UHGV virus genome: UHGV-0319989
Origin: a virus
DNA length: 38,413 nt
Direction: 5' to 3' (one strand)
The position numbers and the translations under genes were made by a program. A model generated the notes under the pieces. It searched no databases, was not told the origin of the DNA, and saw nothing but the letters and a program-made list of their open reading frames with translations. Each line of letters opens with the position of its first letter. Position 1 is the first letter of the stretch. Positions 613-31,623 of this stretch are shown one piece after another.

Positions 613-1557
613 ATGGATTTAATTATGGAATGGAGATTTTTAGGTTCTCTATCAGAGGCCAGGAAATCTGGCTGTAGCGGAGTTTATCTTATTGTCCATA
701 AAGGACTTTTCAGTCGTGTGGTTTACGTTGGGGTAAGTTGTAATGTAGGTAGAAGGATAACCGAACATTACGACGGTTATCTTAGAGGAAATCGAACAAT
801 TTACGACGCTGGTCACGACGAAGACGTTTATCGCTTCATGTCAGCTTATAAAATTCATAACCACACAAAATACTATCAAGCCTTGGCGAATGATTATAAG
901 ATATGGGCATCTACCACAATGTATTCTGATTTGCCGAAAAACATGCTAGCAAAAAGCCAAACCTTTGATACTGATTGGCAGAGCATTGCATTAGAAAAAT
1001 ATATTCCTCAACTGGTAGTATGGGCCCTTCCAATGGCAAAATACTGTTATTCAAATGCAAGCAGGATTGAAAGTGTAATCCAATCAAAGCTCATTAAATC
1101 TTTTGATTTGAGAGGTTTTTTTAATATAAAGCAATTAAGCATATTGGGTAAAATTGAATATCCCTATATGGAAAAGGTCAAAGTTTTCATTATTAACACA
1201 CCTGATTTAGACCCGGCATCCCAGCTTATTTTTAGCAATCTATATAACAAAAAAACTGATAACAACTTCTGTAAAGAGTTCCGTTCACAATTTAAAAGCG
1301 AGATTTTTCAGAGGGAAAGTGAAACTCAGAGAAAGCGAACTATTAGGGAGCATAAGGTATCTCTTTATGAAAATTATGGCAAGCCTTGGACTTTAAAGGA
1401 AATGGAAAAACTTAGAGTCATGCTTGTCGATTTTGATTTGTCCCCGACAGAAATATCTGAGTATCTAGGAAGAGAGCCGCGCTCTATATCTAAAAAAATA
1501 AGCGAAAATGATAAAGTTACTAATTATAAATGGCGAGAGAGCGTCGGCTGGTTGTGA
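613..1557 (+). CDS. Hypothetical protein with GIY-YIG-like N-terminal motif and C-terminal HTH-like motif (homing-endonuclease-like architecture)
   Basis: 314-aa ORF in strongly AT-rich DNA. N-terminus GVYLIVHKG...RVVYVGVSCNVGRRITEH resembles the GIY-(x10)-YIG...R...E/H nuclease motif; C-terminus KPWTLKEMEKLRVML...SPTEISEYLGREPRSISKKI resembles a WTxEE-type HTH. Start codon uncertain (613 or 625). Confidence 0.55.
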   Translation: MDLIMEWRFLGSLSEARKSGCSGVYLIVHKGLFSRVVYVGVSCNVGRRITEHYDGYLRGNRTIYDAGHDEDVYRFMSAYKIHNHTKYYQALANDYKIWASTTMYSDLPKNMLAKSQTFDTDWQSIALEKYIPQLVVWALPMAKYCYSNASRIESVIQSKLIKSFDLRGFFNIKQLSILGKIEYPYMEKVKVFIINTPDLDPASQLIFSNLYNKKTDNNFCKEFRSQFKSEIFQRESETQRKRTIREHKVSLYENYGKPWTLKEMEKLRVMLVDFDLSPTEISEYLGREPRSISKKISENDKVTNYKWRESVGWL

Positions 1558-1970: not shown

Positions 1971-2732
1971 TCACTGACGTGTTCTTGCCTCAACTACTTT
2001 CTGGTATATAGCGATAGCTTCATCAACCAAAGCTAATGGATAGCAAGAATTTATATTCAATCCGGAGGGGCACTTAATTCTTTCTGCTCCACGTTCACTA
2101 CGCAATTTTTCACACCATTGCCAAAGCTCCTCAACCGAATAGGTATCCAAACCTAACTCCATCAATCGTTGAGGAACACTTCTGAACTGAGACAAATCTC
2201 TTAAACTTTCTAACGAGTTAACTTTTAGTTCAACTTGGTTTACTCTACTTTCTAACTCTTCACGTTTTTCTATTTCCATTACCAATGCTTGAACCGTCTG
2301 CTGCAGACTGTTAGCAAAAGCACTCAGTTCTGAACGTTCTTGCTTAGGTGGCGGAGGATATACACCAAATTCACGAATAGACGGAAGGACCTGATGAAAA
2401 AGCCAGCGTTGGAATTTTTTCCCCGCAGCAGTAGTATCCTGAGCAAGTACTCTATATAGACCTGGTTCAGTAAGAAATACCTCAGAGATAGTTTCACCAT
2501 CCACGACAAGAGAAACATTCCTAAACTCATCTGGATCTAAAGTTTTTATTACCGCTCTTATTACAGTGAGCAAGCTTTGAGAAGTCTTTCCATCCAGTTT
2601 TCTGTTCTCAGCAGAAAGCGTTCTTAGCACATCTGAAAGTGAAACAAAAATCTGCCCTTTTTCATTCATGCTACGGATATAATTTTCTCCACACTCTCCT
2701 TCGTAGCATAATTGTAACAAATTCTTTTGCAC
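1971..2732 (-). CDS. BRO-N domain protein (antirepressor-like)
   Basis: N-terminal region IFVSLSDVLRTLS...VVDGETISEVFLTEPGLYRVLAQD...KFQRWLFHQVLPSIREFGVY matches the BRO-N pattern (E.GLYRL..., VLP.IR..G.Y); C-terminal half is predicted coiled-coil. Confidence 0.55.
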   Translation of the reverse strand: MQKNLLQLCYEGECGENYIRSMNEKGQIFVSLSDVLRTLSAENRKLDGKTSQSLLTVIRAVIKTLDPDEFRNVSLVVDGETISEVFLTEPGLYRVLAQDTTAAGKKFQRWLFHQVLPSIREFGVYPPPPKQERSELSAFANSLQQTVQALVMEIEKREELESRVNQVELKVNSLESLRDLSQFRSVPQRLMELGLDTYSVEELWQWCEKLRSERGAERIKCPSGLNINSCYPLALVDEAIAIYQKVVEARTRQ

Positions 2733-3065
2733 GCCATCCCCTCCTTTTTTTATGGATTATACATCCTATAAACATGTTGTCACCGAAAGGGAAAAGCATA
2801 AACCCAATTTATGTTCCACAAGATGTTCAAAAATCAAACAACCATATAGCTGAGGAGCACAAAAGAGCAAAAGTTTACCAACCCCATATATCCATACAGC
2901 ACATACAATTGACACTACATATGGTATTTTTTAAGTTACGCCTTGCACCATTTCATGATTTTATGTAGATTGTCATCACACGCTGAGATTAAAAAATTCT
3001 ACAATTTTTGTTGATCTTGAGTTTGGTTTTTAGTATAAGTGAGCATGGATTGTAGGAGGCGCAAC

Positions 3066-3416
3066 ATGGTAACTAGCTTTGGTAAGACTCTCAGAAAAAT
3101 GAGAATAGACCGGGGTATGGTGCTCAAAAATATGGCTGATCTGTTAGGCGTTAGTTCGGCTTACTTATCCGCCATTGAATTAGGCAAAAGAGCTATACCG
3201 GACTCATTAGTAAATACGATTGCAACAACTTTTGAGCTTAGCGGACAAGACATCATCAATCTCAAGAAACAGGCAGAGATTTCTCAACCGTCCATTAAGG
3301 TTGATATGTCGGATGCAAATGAGCAGAACAAAGAACTAATGCTTGTTTTTGCTCGTAAATTTAAGGACCTGAGTCCAGAGCAACTCGATAAGCTTAATAA
3401 AATGTTAAAGGACTGA
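3066..3416 (+). CDS. XRE-family helix-turn-helix transcriptional regulator
   Basis: HTH MVLKNMADLLGVSSAYLSAIELGKRAIP. AGGAGG Shine-Dalgarno 6 nt upstream of the ATG at 3066 (the ORF-track start at 3039 lacks an RBS). Confidence 0.8.
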   Translation: MVTSFGKTLRKMRIDRGMVLKNMADLLGVSSAYLSAIELGKRAIPDSLVNTIATTFELSGQDIINLKKQAEISQPSIKVDMSDANEQNKELMLVFARKFKDLSPEQLDKLNKMLKD

Positions 3417-3419
3417 ATA

Positions 3420-3953
3420 ATGATTGCGAAACGAGAACTTGGCCATCGCGTTTCACCTCTCAGCACCAGCATGATTAAATCATACGCTCATCGTCTGAGA
3501 GACGTTCTTCAGATATCAAATCACACATATCTGAGACTGGATGTATTACTAGAAGGTCTTATGGCCTCAGAAAGCATTGAGCTAGAAATTGTTGAAGATC
3601 ATGAACTGCCCAAACGCTATGCAGTGACTTATCCAGATAAGAACAAAATTGTTTTACAGCGATCTGTTTACGATGCAGTGTGCAATGGTGAGAACCATGC
3701 GAGATTCACTGTTGCGCATGAACTTGGTCATTTAGTCATGCATCGCAATCAAAGTATCTATGCACGTAATAAGACTAGTGGAGGGCATAAAATCTATGAA
3801 GACAGCGAATGGCAAGCAGATGTTTTTGCAAGCCACTTCTTAATTGACTCAAGACTAGTTTTGCCCACAATGACTGTTGAAGATATAAGCAAAACATTTG
3901 GTGTCAGTCAACAAGCGGCTGAAACTTGGATGAGAAAAAATGCAAAAAGATAA
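3420..3953 (+). CDS. ImmA/IrrE-family (COG2856-like) zinc metallopeptidase
   Basis: HEXXH motif in FTVAHELGHLVMH with downstream E...SEWQADVFASHFL. ATG 3 nt after the XRE stop, so a coupled XRE-peptidase pair. Confidence 0.75.
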   Translation: MIAKRELGHRVSPLSTSMIKSYAHRLRDVLQISNHTYLRLDVLLEGLMASESIELEIVEDHELPKRYAVTYPDKNKIVLQRSVYDAVCNGENHARFTVAHELGHLVMHRNQSIYARNKTSGGHKIYEDSEWQADVFASHFLIDSRLVLPTMTVEDISKTFGVSQQAAETWMRKNAKR

Positions 3954-4547: not shown

Positions 4548-5417
<870 letters not shown>

Positions 5418-5437: not shown

Positions 5438-5478
5438 AACCGCAGCACGATCTTCTTGCATACGACGTGCTACGGTTT
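5438..5478. repeat. Copy C (short) of the hairpin repeat; likely bidirectional terminator between convergent genes
   Basis: AAA-CCGCAGCACG-(16-nt loop containing TTCTTGCATACGA)-CGTGCTACGG-TTT, a 9/10-bp stem between the GIY-YIG stop (5417) and the invertase stop (5478); shares the core with copies A and B. Confidence 0.55.
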
Positions 5479-6032
5479 CATTTATCTCCGACCGGAAACT
5501 TCTTATACAGTGTCGATATACCAACATCATAGATGATCGCCACCTTCTGGCGAGGAACGCCTGATGCAATTAATCGCCCGGCCTGCGCCCATTGTTCTGG
5601 TGTAAGTTTGGGACGACGTCCACCAATTCGTCCCTGTGCGCGAGCAGCTTCCAGTCCAGCTTTTGTTCGTTCAACAATCAGTTCTCGTTCCATTTCAGCC
5701 AGGGCACCCATCACATGAAAGAAAAAGCGCCCCATTGGGGTACTGGTATCAATTGAATCCGTCAGACTACGAAAGTTGATGCCTCGTTCGTGCAACTCCT
5801 CCACCAGCACGACAAGATGCCGCATACTGCGCCCCAGTCGGTCCAGTTTCCAGACCACCAGCGTGTCACCTGCCGATAATGTCCTGAGCAGCTTTTTCAG
5901 TCCTGGTCTGTCGGACTTTGTACCGCTTATCTTGTCTTCAAAAATCAGCTCACATCCTGCACAGTTCAGCGCATTACGTTGTAGATCTGTGTTCTGGTCA
6001 TTTGTTGACACACGTACATAGCCAATAAGCAT
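5478..6032 (-). CDS. Serine DNA invertase, Hin/Gin/Pin/Cin family (tail-fibre inversion recombinase)
   Basis: N-terminus MLIGYVRVSTNDQ (catalytic Ser motif), resolvase core, C-terminal HTH GVPRQKVAIIYDVGISTLYKKF. GGGAGA SD upstream of the ATG at 6030-6032. Adjacent to the invertible segment. Confidence 0.9.
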   Translation of the reverse strand: MLIGYVRVSTNDQNTDLQRNALNCAGCELIFEDKISGTKSDRPGLKKLLRTLSAGDTLVVWKLDRLGRSMRHLVVLVEELHERGINFRSLTDSIDTSTPMGRFFFHVMGALAEMERELIVERTKAGLEAARAQGRIGGRRPKLTPEQWAQAGRLIASGVPRQKVAIIYDVGISTLYKKFPVGDK

Positions 6033-6086
6033 GGTAGATCTCCCTGACAAAAGCAGGAATGGTGCCATTTGCTCGTTATTTCTGCA

Positions 6087-6442: not shown

Positions 6443-6626
6443 TCCTGTTACTTTGACTGAAGTAATCCCCGGTCTTCATGACGTGACCGGGGCTGTTGAA
6501 TTACCAGAAGATAACTGGTTTTTTACTGCATCTGAAATCCCTGAAGGAATGGAAATATCTGTTAACGAGAAGGGAGAACCCATTCTGATTGAGATTAAAC
6601 CGTCTCAGGAGGAACTGGCCAGATGA
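6429..6626 (+). CDS. Alternative tail-fibre assembly ORF (tfa'), short, possibly truncated
   Basis: GTG start preceded by GGAGGG. Product VRLFNPVTLTEVIPGLHDVTGAVELPEDNWFFTASEIPEG... reads like a Tfa N-terminus but is only 65 aa and converges into the 3' end of the minus-strand tfa. Confidence 0.4.
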   Translation: MRLFNPVTLTEVIPGLHDVTGAVELPEDNWFFTASEIPEGMEISVNEKGEPILIEIKPSQEELAR

Positions 6627-7215
6627 CATCTGGCGCGGTGCTGGTATCTGTTGCCATCACCGCGTCAGTGTAATCCAGCACGGCGTTAAGTCGGGTGTTT
6701 TCTGCCTGCGTCAGCTTCCGTCCGGCCTGTAATTTCAGTTGAATCAGACTGATGGAAGCCATTGCTGCATCAATCAGTGACTGGCGCTGTGCTTCTGCCG
6801 CTTCTACTGCGGCGCTATGCTGTGCCTCAGTATTCGTCACCCATTTCTCACCATCCCATTTATCATATGGCGTTAACGGGGCGATAGTGGTTGTATTTTC
6901 AGGGTAATCACCCAGAGCTGTGATTTCTTTCGATTCTCCTGTTTCAGTGCTATAGATGATTTCACCGCGATGGTCTGGCACATATTCCCATGAGTTAAAA
7001 TCTGCAGAACGGCAGATTGCATAACCAGCTTTATGTGTAACTGGTGCATCTAAACAAGAACATGCCGGGATGCCGACGCCAACCGCAAGATATTCAGTTG
7101 ATGTGGAAAGATATTCCCGCGTCTTGCTGTCGTAGTTGTATATGACGACTTCACCCGCGACAGTCGCCAGTAGGGCCTCATTCAGTGTGACTGTATTCAT
7201 GGTATCCTCGCGCAT
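6595..7215 (-). CDS. Tail-fibre assembly protein (Tfa/U-like)
   Basis: Typical Tfa C-terminus ...DTSTAPDVIWPVPPETV; TAATG overlap with the tail-fibre stop. Start may instead be the internal ATG at 7200 (MNTVTL...). Confidence 0.8.
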   Translation of the reverse strand: MREDTMNTVTLNEALLATVAGEVVIYNYDSKTREYLSTSTEYLAVGVGIPACSCLDAPVTHKAGYAICRSADFNSWEYVPDHRGEIIYSTETGESKEITALGDYPENTTTIAPLTPYDKWDGEKWVTNTEAQHSAAVEAAEAQRQSLIDAAMASISLIQLKLQAGRKLTQAENTRLNAVLDYTDAVMATDTSTAPDVIWPVPPETV

Positions 7216-28441: not shown

Positions 28442-28660
28442 TCATTGCTGAAGGCGTCTGTAACAGCCGAACTGGTAATCTACCAGCCCCGCCATAACCA
28501 GCTGGGTCAGTATTAACTGACAGCGTTCGCGTGAAAGGTATGTGTTTTGTGCAATCTCCCCGACTGTTGCCGGTTCGATGCTTAATTCATTAAAAACAAC
28601 TTTCGCCGTTTCTGTCATATCTTGCTGTTTTAGCATGTCTTTTTCCCTTCTGGTTAACAT
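28442..28660 (-). CDS. Small hypothetical protein, winged-helix-like
   Basis: 72 aa (...PATVGEIAQNTYLSRERCQLILTQLVMAGLV...); first gene after the putative late terminator. Confidence 0.4.
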   Translation of the reverse strand: MLTRREKDMLKQQDMTETAKVVFNELSIEPATVGEIAQNTYLSRERCQLILTQLVMAGLVDYQFGCYRRLQQ

Positions 28661-28758
28661 GACATACCAATAACTCTTGTCTAAAAAGCCAGCAAGATAA
28701 AAAGTCAGTATTCACGACCACCAGCGTGTTTACCGTACTGCTCTTGGTTTACAGGTAC

Positions 28759-28783
28759 AAAAAAACCGCTCGACGGCGGGTTT
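28759..28783 (-). terminator. Candidate tR'-like terminator for minus-strand late transcription
   Basis: On the minus strand AAACCCGCCGTCGAGCGGTTTTTTT: short GC stem plus 7-T run, between the opposite-strand insertion and the late genes. Confidence 0.35.
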
Positions 28784-28899
28784 AAGCTGTGTGGCGAAGT
28801 AACCACTCTTAACAGATTATGATAGTTTTTGCGTACGCGTTAGTAATTTATTATGCTCTTTACAATTGTTAGCTTAACCGCATGGAATTGACCAAAAAA

Positions 28900-30048
28900 A
28901 TGAGCAAAGCAAGCATACGCCACGTAATCGTTCATGAGCTCTTAAAAGAATCTAATAAAGACTTCGATCACTCCAAACCATACAATCTTCGTGATACAGA
29001 ACTAGATAAAACAAATGATATAGTAAAAAAATTAGTAGACGGTGTTATTGATTTGTATGGTTCAAAAGGGAACTCAGCGCATTATGGTGTTTTTATTAAA
29101 AATAAAACAAAGCAAGGCCCTATACCAGAACTATTTTATAAATACTCTTTAGTTCAACAATCTGTTTCAAGTGATTTCATTGAATTATCGAAGGAAGTTA
29201 TGAAACAAATGTATAAATCTGCTCAAGAGCAGATTTGGGCTTCTGGAGGATATGTTGTTTTTACTGATTATATTTTATCTGGTTTCCGTTATCTATTGGT
29301 TACAATGATCAAAAAAACTAATGGCGTAACTATTAGTGAAAATTTAGAGCCAGAGGAAATGATTCACTTAGAACTTGGTAATATTAACCAAGCAGCAAAA
29401 ATAAATTTCAGATATTATGAAGAATACCAAAAAGCAGATGACTTAAAAAAAACAGACTTAAGTTATCTAAGCTTTATAAGCAAAACTACGGGACAGTCAG
29501 CGGCAGCATATTTTATAGCAGCATTAGGATGTGACAAGGGGATTGCTTCAGCAGGTGCAACCCGTAAGTTACCAGATGAAATAAGGCGTTTCTTTAAGAA
29601 AGAACCTCTTTTAAAAAATCAAGCAGAGTCATTTAGAAATGATGTTATCAAATACTTAGAAAAGCAATTTGACAACGAGCACTCTGCAAGGCTTTCTGAT
29701 ATCGAATCGCTTGCTTCAGGCCATATGTCCGATTTAAAAGAGGAAGAAAAAACAGAACTTGTTGATAAATTAATGAAACACCTCAATAGTGAGGAAGTCA
29801 GAATCCCATCAGAGTTCGTAATCAATAAAAACTCCTTAGATAAAATCCGCAATGTGATATATAAAACCCCATCATTGAGCTTTCACTTCGACAAGGATTT
29901 ACTCGGTGTCACAACTGATGCTAAAATATATTATGATGACGAAAACCAAAGCCTAACATTTAATAATTTGCCTGTTGAAGCATTAACTAAGATAAGAAGA
30001 GCGTTGAAAGAAACTGATAACCCGAGTAATGAAGAAGATAAAGAATGA
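28900..30048 (+). CDS. NdpA/YejK-like nucleoid-associated-protein-family homologue (candidate sensor of a cargo two-gene module)
   Basis: Collinear similarity by eye to E. coli YejK: N-terminus IRHVIVHELLKE versus YejK INQIALHQLIKR, and core GGYVVFTDYILSGFRYLLVTMIKKTNGVTISENLE. AT-rich, plus strand inside a minus-strand operon. An in-frame ATG at 28882 is an alternative start. Confidence 0.6.
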   Translation: MSKASIRHVIVHELLKESNKDFDHSKPYNLRDTELDKTNDIVKKLVDGVIDLYGSKGNSAHYGVFIKNKTKQGPIPELFYKYSLVQQSVSSDFIELSKEVMKQMYKSAQEQIWASGGYVVFTDYILSGFRYLLVTMIKKTNGVTISENLEPEEMIHLELGNINQAAKINFRYYEEYQKADDLKKTDLSYLSFISKTTGQSAAAYFIAALGCDKGIASAGATRKLPDEIRRFFKKEPLLKNQAESFRNDVIKYLEKQFDNEHSARLSDIESLASGHMSDLKEEEKTELVDKLMKHLNSEEVRIPSEFVINKNSLDKIRNVIYKTPSLSFHFDKDLLGVTTDAKIYYDDENQSLTFNNLPVEALTKIRRALKETDNPSNEEDKE

Positions 30049-31271
30049 ATGATTTTAGTATAATAGTTAATCTGTATAGATTATCAAGCTATCCTCATTT
30101 TGACGGGGCTAAGTTTTCTGCGCGTATAGCTTATAAGGCAGACGTAAAATCATTGTTCAAAAGAATTTTGAACCCTACTTTTCAAGCTGGTACAGCTGAC
30201 GAAATAGAGGTGGATGGTCATTTAATTTATGATTATGAAGACTTTCCTGAAAAGGGAAATTTTCTTACATACTCGTTTAAAATTTCACAAGGAAGTGCGA
30301 ATCGTTTTTATAAAAATAAAAACGAGTTTGTAAAAATAAACACGCTCAAGAAAGGCATAATGCCAGAGTATTTCTATATTATAGAGGATGATTTCTATTC
30401 ATTAGAAACACCAAAACCTTCTTATATCCAAAAAATTGAGGACATTTGTGAGCTAATCAATGCTCTTTCCATGCTTGCTCATTTCCATGATATAAAAAAA
30501 GATAGCAAAGGTACATTTTATCGTTTAGTCTTTATTTTAAACTCAGAGTCTAAATCTTCTTCTGCTGTAATTGAAACAAATATTACAGAAGAAATTTTTA
30601 ATGATAAAACAGTAAATACTCAGTTAGTTAAAACATTAGTAAGTAGTGAAGCTACTACTGATGCCCATCACATTGAAAAGATTAACACTTTCAGAAACAC
30701 AGTTATTGAGTATGTTAATAAAAATGGAAATTCCTTTGTCGAGTTAATTAACAAGTGGGATTTCATATGCGAACTTTATACGAACAACTTAGCTGCTTAT
30801 ATGTCGGCATTTTCTTTTCATAAAGCAAGGAAAGAAGTTGTTGATGCTGAACTCGATTACTCAGAAAAACTGTCAAAAATAATTTCAGAAATTTCTAACA
30901 AAGCTCTTGCAATACCTATTTCACTAGCTGGTTCAATTGCTATTTTCAAATTAACAACAAAAACTGATTGGATTATTGCTTTAATTGGATTGATTATCAC
31001 AGCAATAATAACATCTGCAATGATTGTGTCACAAAAAAAACAACTCGCTCGTATTTCACACTCTAAAGAAATACTTTTTGGACAATTAAGATATAGAATA
31101 AAGGATGACACCAGCGATCTTAAAGAGAGCTTAGAAGAGGCTATTAAAAAATTAAATGACAATGAGGATTTTTGTCATAAGGTGCTTGACAGTTTATTAT
31201 CACTAGCATGGATGCCTACATTCATAGGCATCATCGGTATTTTATTTAAATTAATGCCAAATATTACTTGA
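30045..31271 (+). CDS. Hypothetical protein with three C-terminal transmembrane helices (candidate membrane effector)
   Basis: 408 aa; ATGA start/stop overlap with the upstream gene; predicted TM segments ALAIPISLAGSIAIFKL, WIIALIGLIITAIITSAMIV, TFIGIIGILFKLM; no recognisable catalytic motif. AT-rich. Confidence 0.6.
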   Translation: MNDFSIIVNLYRLSSYPHFDGAKFSARIAYKADVKSLFKRILNPTFQAGTADEIEVDGHLIYDYEDFPEKGNFLTYSFKISQGSANRFYKNKNEFVKINTLKKGIMPEYFYIIEDDFYSLETPKPSYIQKIEDICELINALSMLAHFHDIKKDSKGTFYRLVFILNSESKSSSAVIETNITEEIFNDKTVNTQLVKTLVSSEATTDAHHIEKINTFRNTVIEYVNKNGNSFVELINKWDFICELYTNNLAAYMSAFSFHKARKEVVDAELDYSEKLSKIISEISNKALAIPISLAGSIAIFKLTTKTDWIIALIGLIITAIITSAMIVSQKKQLARISHSKEILFGQLRYRIKDDTSDLKESLEEAIKKLNDNEDFCHKVLDSLLSLAWMPTFIGIIGILFKLMPNIT

Positions 31272-31623
31272 GCATGTACATAACCCCATTAATGAAACCT
31301 AACGCAGTCTGCAATTGCTTCCGGATTGTTCCATCTGAGCATCTGCGTCTCTTCGCAATAGAACGCAGTGAAATACCTATAACGAAGTGAGCAATGATCA
31401 GCTCATATTCGTCTGGTTTATACTTACACAGGCGGGCAACACAGCCGTCTATCATGATGCCTTCATCATCATCACACTGAAGGCGTATTTTTTTACCATG
31501 AGGTAAAAGCCCCTTAAAGCCTGCTGCTATCGGCTGCCAGTCCACACCACTGTTATCTGCTGCAGCCCACGCTCCCCAGCGGTCTAAAACTTCATACATA
31601 TCACGCATCAACTTTCTCCACAA
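31264..31623 (-). CDS. Late-gene antiterminator Q (QuuD / phage 82-type)
   Basis: MRDMYEVLDRWGAWAA...WQPIAAGFKGLLP...CDDDEGIMIDGCVARL resembles the E. coli QuuD family. Start may be the internal ATG at 31608. Confidence 0.75.
   Translation of the reverse strand: MWRKLMRDMYEVLDRWGAWAAADNSGVDWQPIAAGFKGLLPHGKKIRLQCDDDEGIMIDGCVARLCKYKPDEYELIIAHFVIGISLRSIAKRRRCSDGTIRKQLQTALGFINGVMYMLK

Follow-up and report, generated by a model that had tools for sequence, protein, structure and literature searches.

The window analysed here, the whole 38,413-nucleotide stretch of the virus genome UHGV-0319989, is a lambdoid prophage whose genes lie mostly on the minus strand, a pattern broken by two plus-strand open reading frames (ORFs) at 28882-30048 and 30045-31271. 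The first encodes a protein resembling YejK (NdpA) and the second a protein with three predicted transmembrane (TM) helices, and the stop codon of gene 1 and the start codon of gene 2 overlap in an ATGA at 30045-30048. We consider it likely, with a probability of roughly 0.72, that this pair is a prophage-borne anti-phage system of the DS-1 or type II PANGU kind that acts by abortive infection. The initial annotation of the window had proposed a defence or abortive-infection pair of an undescribed kind and knew of no described system built on an NdpA-like protein. The first part of this proposal is supported by homology to tested systems, namely DS-1 and type II PANGU, whereas the second part did not survive, as DS-1 and PANGU are such systems; overall, the pair is probably a real defence module, yet not one of an undescribed kind. 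Its features are as follows (aa, amino acids; pI, isoelectric point).

28882..30048, plus strand: gene 1 ORF, 388 aa (382 aa if the start is the internal ATG at 28900)
30045..31271, plus strand: gene 2 ORF, 408 aa
30045..30899, plus strand: soluble part of gene 2, residues 1-285; alpha/beta domain 1-180, then helices; pI 5.6, net charge -7
30903..31034, plus strand: TM hairpin of gene 2, two helices, residues 287-330; hydropathy peak 2.76; AlphaFold2 helices 289-302 and 306 onward
31209..31256, plus strand: third TM helix of gene 2, C-terminal, residues 389-404, by hydropathy and AlphaFold2

Gene 1 matches the Pfam family NA37 (E 4.4e-50, residues 16-364) and aligns over its whole length with 9be2_A, a solved structure of YejK (E 5.7e-15), so that profile searches agree with the resemblance to NdpA/YejK noticed at the outset. 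It also matches phrog_3767 (E 1e-97) and the NCBIfam model DS1_1_antiphage (NF053868; 98.1 bits, E 5.2e-28, equivalog cut-off 330). Full-length homology over the NA37 fold is common to gene 1 and the chromosomal YejK/NdpA of E. coli (PDB 9be2), but gene 1 is not an orthologue of the latter, reaching 133 bits on the YejK equivalog model NF001557, below its cut-off of 341, and it differs further in being prophage-borne, AT-rich and always accompanied by a membrane partner. Judged from its sequence, gene 1 is a full-length NA37/YejK protein and the counterpart of DS-1A and Pag2A of the systems discussed below. A literature search on PF04245 returned nothing relevant, and PADLOC-DB v2.0.0 (2023), which is older than DS-1 and PANGU, gave only a chance-level DrmC match for gene 1 (E 0.07) and no match for gene 2.

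Gene 2 matches phrog_5023 (E 2e-138) and the NCBIfam model DS1_2_antiphage (NF053869; 100 bits, E 1.5e-28, model positions 31-336 of 337, cut-off 315), and its protein is identical to WP_016159279.1, the PGAP identifier in a copy with 99.9% DNA identity. It had been described as lacking any recognisable domain save three C-terminal TM helices, and this description holds: Pfam gave no family in gene 2, nor any consistently in 33 homologues (E up to 1), the hits being scattered noise with no SLATT family among them, and hydropathy and AlphaFold2 both indicate three helices. The AlphaFold2 model, built with 33 homologues (predicted local distance difference test score, pLDDT, 85.9), places helices at the hydrophobic segments and gives the order of an alpha/beta domain (1-180), helices to residue 287, the TM hairpin, about 60 helical residues and the final TM helix, with the third hydrophobic segment spanning about residues 381-405 by hydropathy. 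The TM hairpin is kept in all alleles, DS-1B included. Residues 1-285 are presumably cytoplasmic and, by analogy to the DMK domain of Pag2B, may form a docking domain for the nucleoid-associated protein (NAP). A PDB sequence search with the gene-2 profile found nothing meaningful, Foldseek found no match at E up to 0.001 against the PDB or against viral structures, and Pfam scans showed no toxSAS similarity.

DS-1 (discovered system 1) is a validated pair of a YejK protein and a TM protein that came from DefensePredictor (PMC13092281), a study posted as a preprint in January 2025 and published in Science in April 2026. DS-1 consists of DS-1A (WP_000355468.1, a YejK-domain protein of 391 aa) and DS-1B (WP_000150292.1, a hypothetical protein of 404 aa), was cloned with its native promoter, and lowered the efficiency of plating (EOP) of several phages, with -log EOP values of 7.6 for Bas1, 2.7 for Bas26, 1.7 for Bas3, 1.7 for T3 and 1.0 for T5 (Table S7, PMC13092281). 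The same study lists WP_016159279.1, that is, the protein of gene 2, as a predicted uncharacterised defence protein with a log-odds score of 13.05 against a stringent cut-off of 4 (Table S10, PMC13092281). By BLASTP, gene 1 is 24% identical to DS-1A (E 1e-10) and gene 2 is 22% identical to DS-1B (E 8e-11), and hhalign of the gene-2 homologue profile with DS-1B gave a probability of 96.4% across 219 columns. Gene order and sizes are alike (391+404 aa in DS-1, 388+408 aa here), in both, an NA37/YejK protein comes before a partner that has a TM hairpin and, at the C-terminus, a third hydrophobic helix, and both pairs are low in GC. The genomic slot is also shared, DS-1 being convergent with a gene for the Q antiterminator that is 85% identical to the Q of the window. 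The defence reading is therefore supported by NCBIfam matches for both genes, BLASTP E values of about 1e-10, the hhalign probability, the phenotype of DS-1 and the log-odds score.

Type II PANGU, described in a preprint by Li et al. of April 2026, combines a YejK-like NAP (Pag2A) with Pag2B, which has an acidic N-terminal "DMK" domain and a C-terminal TM domain (bioRxiv 10.64898/2026.04.06.716658). Of the tested systems, one comes from uropathogenic E. coli: both genes were required, toxicity arose neither from a single gene nor from the pair, and cultures behaved as in abortive infection, stalling at high multiplicity of infection (MOI) (10.64898/2026.04.06.716658). Pag2A fused to green fluorescent protein moves off the nucleoid upon T4 infection, and Pag2A binds the DMK domain with a dissociation constant of 19 nM; dependence on EndoII, a nuclease that degrades host DNA, was demonstrated for type I PANGU only (10.64898/2026.04.06.716658). 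The likeness of the window pair to type II PANGU is one of described architecture, not of sequence, in that both are bicistronic and join a YejK-like NAP to a C-terminal TM effector; the traits present in the window are an NAP gene in first position, the ATGA coupling of this NA37 gene, and a C-terminal TM effector by hydropathy and AlphaFold2. In contrast, the window clade occupies a fixed lambdoid prophage slot, and the preprint stresses linkage to defence islands and never mentions prophages (10.64898/2026.04.06.716658). Type I PANGU (Pag1A with the GRel toxSAS Pag1B) is less similar in that its effector is a soluble alarmone synthetase, whereas gene 2 encodes a membrane protein.

A mechanism modelled on these systems can be proposed for the window pair. 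The lysogen would express the two genes from their own promoter as the single translationally coupled unit seen in the architecture of the locus, and the YejK-like protein would sit on the host nucleoid, as has been shown for Pag2A. An incoming lytic phage that degrades or remodels the host chromosome would free this protein, which would then bind the soluble N-terminal domain of gene 2, an interaction measured for Pag2A and Pag2B's DMK domain. The three TM helices of the partner would, putatively, harm the membrane and bring the infected cell to a halt before any phage is released. Lambdoid phages spare the DNA of their host, and therefore induction of the cell's own prophage should not trigger the system.

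Several points weigh against this assignment. Identity to DS-1 is only 22-24%, the scores of 98 and 100 bits compare with equivalog cut-offs of 330 and 315, and the NAP of the window is without the N-terminal CxxC...CxxC zinc ribbon of DS-1A (DS-1A begins MDITCLECGNVLDDPTVACDKCG, and gene 1 begins MELTKKMSKASIRHVIVHELL, which has no CxxC pairs). The reduction in plating was seen for DS-1 itself only among the pairs of this comparison, and the available experimental data belong to DS-1 and PANGU-Ecu rather than to the window allele, unless the latter should be PANGU-Ecu. The phage ranges of DS-1 and the tested PANGU systems differ, and the trigger may therefore differ between alleles. The acidity of the N-terminal domain of gene 2 is no more than mild (pI 5.6-5.7, net charge -6 to -7; pI 4.7-6.0 in other alleles), so that the DNA-mimic feature is not evident from it. 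Fold searches gave no significant pore or channel, with CorA and ClyA as weak leads only, and the PANGU preprint itself calls the activation of Pag2B by Pag2A unknown (10.64898/2026.04.06.716658).

The same differences bear on how closely the pair is related to DS-1. As a control, the DS-1 proteins reach 451 and 375 bits on the two NCBIfam models and pass the cut-offs, whereas relatives of the window pair from Pectobacterium, Salmonella and metagenomes score like the window and not like DS-1. Scores far below the equivalog cut-offs, the missing zinc ribbon and the window-like scores of these relatives together indicate that the window pair is a sister clade of DS-1 and not DS-1 proper.

The distribution of the two genes adds to the argument. 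Linkage was followed in Pectobacterium, Edwardsiella, Salmonella, two further E. coli alleles, Klebsiella phage P7641, two DS-1-type loci and three distant members, and in every lineage sampled the NA37 gene lies directly upstream of the partner. Across eight loci, the identities of NAP and partner are strongly correlated (r=0.958, Mantel p=2e-4), and the divergence of neither is correlated with that of the adjacent Q (r=-0.16 and -0.09, respectively). The correlation within the pair, and its absence with Q, shows that the two genes have been inherited as one unit, although physical co-adaptation is not proved by that alone. The NAP is always more conserved than its partner (for example, 76% versus 52% and 54% versus 39%). 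Furthermore, the proportion of nonsynonymous differences (pN, 0.16-0.34) is far below a saturated synonymous proportion (pS, about 0.75-0.8), from which it follows that purifying selection acts on both genes and that the alleles are old.

A search of 1.84 billion representatives with the gene-2 profile found 1008 clusters at E up to 0.001, including 197 at E up to 1e-30; most are 400-430 aa long, and lengths stay within 400-434 aa across 22-100% identity. The window allele is present at identities of at least 99% in 30 of 5426 complete E. coli genomes, many of which are alike in size and coordinates and may be clonal, so that 30 is not a count of independent events. Both ORFs are intact in all of them save one copy, in E. 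coli strain 268.2, that is cut by IS1. About 12 further E. coli genomes carry alleles at roughly 67% nucleotide identity, and the left flank is found in about 3000 genomes. Among 50,697 phage records, a relative of gene 2 occurs in one, Klebsiella phage P7641, where it lies in the same slot. It had been suggested that related prophages be compared to see whether the pair comes and goes as a unit, and it does: the NA37 gene is always upstream, and the allele is in 30 of 5426 genomes as against about 3000 with the left flank. The unity of the pair, its patchy distribution and the presence of a PD-T4-3 locus in the same prophage support the defence reading.

In the Salmonella allele, the NAP gene is immediately preceded, on its own strand, by a DUF6037 gene (L013/L014, 5321-5884), which could be either a third member of the system or cargo in its own right.

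Other explanations of the pair were weighed, and each is weaker than abortive infection. A prophage-encoded pair with an inner-membrane component could serve superinfection exclusion at DNA entry, with the membrane protein blocking or sensing injection, the NAP binding the incoming DNA and the cell surviving, and the 7.6-log block of Bas1 by DS-1 is above that of many abortive-infection systems. However, type II PANGU cultures stall at high MOI and Pag2A relocalises, which fits an abortive infection that is triggered internally, and we regard exclusion as unlikely. Strong phage resistance from homologous pairs also speaks against a lysogenic-conversion or regulatory module with no role in immunity, as do strict two-gene linkage, extreme allelic diversification and patchiness, all typical of defence genes. 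In such a module the phage NAP would reshape host or prophage transcription, for instance by silencing, and the membrane partner would tether or sequester; the genuine, full-length YejK fold of gene 1 and the non-defence cargo that the slot also carries, the porin gene nmpC in DLP12, are in keeping with this, but we rate it as decidedly unlikely.

A toxin-antitoxin or addiction module by which the prophage would be stabilised, with the membrane protein as toxin and the NAP as antidote, is very improbable: a translationally coupled two-gene pair with a membrane protein has the right outline, but according to the PANGU preprint neither gene nor the pair is toxic and both are needed for protection, and the upstream gene exceeds a typical antitoxin in both size and conservation. 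The IS1 insertion in one of the 30 E. coli copies would favour decaying, non-functional cargo, but this reading is scarcely credible, since the ORFs are otherwise intact and at least 99% identical across these genomes, protein lengths hold at 400-434 aa and pN is far below pS. An abortive-infection system thus remains the best explanation of the pair.

The position of the pair is as characteristic as its content. The pair had initially been placed, as a coupled plus-strand unit, between Q and the lysis genes, and this is borne out by the ORFs, the ATGA overlap and the minus-strand genes on both sides. The left flank comprises a 72-aa ORF and genes for an N6/N4 methyltransferase, a holin of the lambda type and a lysin; DUF968/HNH and KilA-N genes also belong to the flanks, and every one of these genes is on the minus strand. 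The features that border the pair are given below.

31264..31623, minus strand: Q antiterminator (flank), Pfam PF06530, E 5e-44; convergent with gene 2 and abutting it
28840..28867, plus strand: candidate promoter of the module, TTAGTA, 16 nt, TACAAT; weak, found by eye, in cargo-specific AT-rich DNA
28765..28841, minus strand: conserved block, which is flank, not cargo, and travels with this Q family
28442-28660, minus strand: winged-helix-like ORF, 72 aa, left flank of the pair

In the Enterobacterales loci, DS-1 included, the pair is convergent with a PF06530 Q gene and abuts it. The stop codon of gene 2 overlaps that of Q by 8 base pairs (bp; 31264-31271), and in all eight loci the distance from stop to stop lies between a 30-bp overlap and a 9-bp gap, which leaves no room for an intergenic terminator, so that transcription from either side enters the other gene antisense. 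The Q proteins are 78-88% identical to the Q of the window at six of the seven other tabulated loci, 57% identical in the second E. coli allele and 87% identical in strain 20A24, and most of them stay at 78-88% while the identity of the cargo drops to 22%.

On the other side of the pair, the conserved block is found upstream of the NAP gene in all eight pair loci. It contains an invariant GCGTACGC palindrome, a -10-like TATCAT/CATAAT, a conserved leader TGTTAAGAGTGGTTACTTCGCCACACAGCTT (also given as TGTTAAGAGTGGTTACTTCGCCACACA) and an intrinsic terminator; positions 28783-28841 read on the minus strand are CTAACGCGTACGCAAAAACTATCATAATCTGTTAAGAGTGGTTACTTCGCCACACAGCTT, followed by the terminator, with its stem at 28765-28777 and a T-run. 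The block also occurs in mEp460_4F5 and Stx2a_1447, which share the Q family and carry different cargo, and in K-12 DLP12 between the porin gene nmpC and essD, whereas SfV, with another type of Q, shares it only from the terminator onward. As the block travels with the Q family whatever the cargo, it is probably a Q-dependent late promoter and Q-utilisation leader with a tR' terminator. A literature search for the motif found no paper giving the sequence. Lying between Q and this putative late promoter, the pair is probably upstream of the Q-dependent late transcript and not inside it. The slot had been equated with the place where Stx cargo sits, and this does not hold, because in Stx2a_1447 stx is further downstream, after the block, a methylase and tRNAs; on these grounds, the idea that the module is part of the late transcript and shares the Stx slot was rejected.

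Other phages carry unrelated proteins in the same slot, having only the position in common with the pair.

mEp460_4F5 (L002 3855-4781), opposite to Q: 308-aa protein
Stx2a_1447 (L010 3401-4964), opposite to Q: 343+179 aa pair
cdtI phage (L018 3308-4696), opposite to Q: 313+147 aa pair, annotated as hypothetical
phiP27 (L019 3245-4474), strand of Q: 409-aa GIY-YIG protein
DLP12, opposite to Q: porin nmpC

Pfam and PADLOC gave no significant match for the three slot proteins of mEp460_4F5 and Stx2a_1447, and the slot cassettes of other phages are candidates for further, unknown cargo functions. The Q-adjacent slot is not universal for the family, since a distant pair, an NA37 protein with a 420-aa partner (L022 3866-6263), lies elsewhere in its prophage, just before the tail-tip gene gpJ and on the strand of gpJ.

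It is possible, but doubtful, that the fixed position is itself functional. Q has to be inherited along with its target site, and cargo between them would therefore be shielded from loss, while the conserved flanks would permit old, highly diverged sensor-effector alleles to be exchanged as cassettes. Given the tight convergent overlap with Q, read-through of the early operon would give antisense RNA across the module on prophage induction. This tentative proposal also holds that the triggers of the window clade may be unlike those of DS-1 and PANGU-Ecu.

The pair is low in GC (about 0.32 overall), with values of 0.29-0.35 across 28800-31200 and 0.47-0.58 on both sides, in agreement with the AT-richness relative to the flanks that had been noticed. 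This composition had been taken to suggest horizontal acquisition. However, all alleles have a GC content of 0.32-0.36 in every host, although the hosts are near 0.50, and recent acquisition was rejected as its explanation; the family as a whole is stably low in GC, which is no sign of recent arrival.

With regard to expression, a consensus promoter scan found sites no commoner than in shuffled sequences and none in the region upstream of the module. The candidate promoter at 28840-28867 would favour the 28900 start codon of gene 1, and ATG 28900 is also the start that PGAP assigns in identical E. coli copies (382 aa). Rfam and tRNA scans of the window gave no matches.

The analysis thus arrived independently at a defence family not known before 2025, whose sensor of host-chromosome damage seems to be a repurposed nucleoid protein. 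To this family it contributes a deeply diverged allele, and to the description of PANGU a prophage context. What is new is that the window pair and DS-1 occupy one fixed slot as deeply diverged alleles, with a conserved Q on one side and the conserved, putative promoter/terminator block on the other, that NAP and partner co-diverge independently of Q, and that PD-T4-3 is found in the same prophage. In Enterobacterales, the family appears as a series of old, co-diverging allele pairs in one Q-adjacent prophage slot, which offers a natural panel for studying the evolution of sensor-effector specificity and phage range. The slot is also marked as a place for further unknown cargo, with four other unannotated cassettes there. 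The fixed slot and the allele series are the parts of most value for follow-up.

Finally, other content of the prophage should be mentioned. The second defence locus, PD-T4-3, fits a defence-carrying phage, and is preceded by a CapH/CapP-like regulator pair, made up of a helix-turn-helix (HTH) protein and a peptidase.

4593-5417, plus strand: GIY-YIG protein, PADLOC PD-T4-3, full-length match, E 2.7e-140
3039-3416 and 3420-3953, plus strand: HTH and M78-peptidase pair before PD-T4-3, CapH and CapP matches, E 6e-11 and 5e-15

A 314-aa ORF at 613-1557 (plus strand) has no Pfam match, and a Bro-N protein is encoded at 1971-2732 (minus strand). In addition, a serine invertase (Resolvase plus HTH_7) adjoins a tail-fibre assembly gene (5478-6068 and 6595-7215, both on the minus strand), which suggests an invertible tail-fibre segment.

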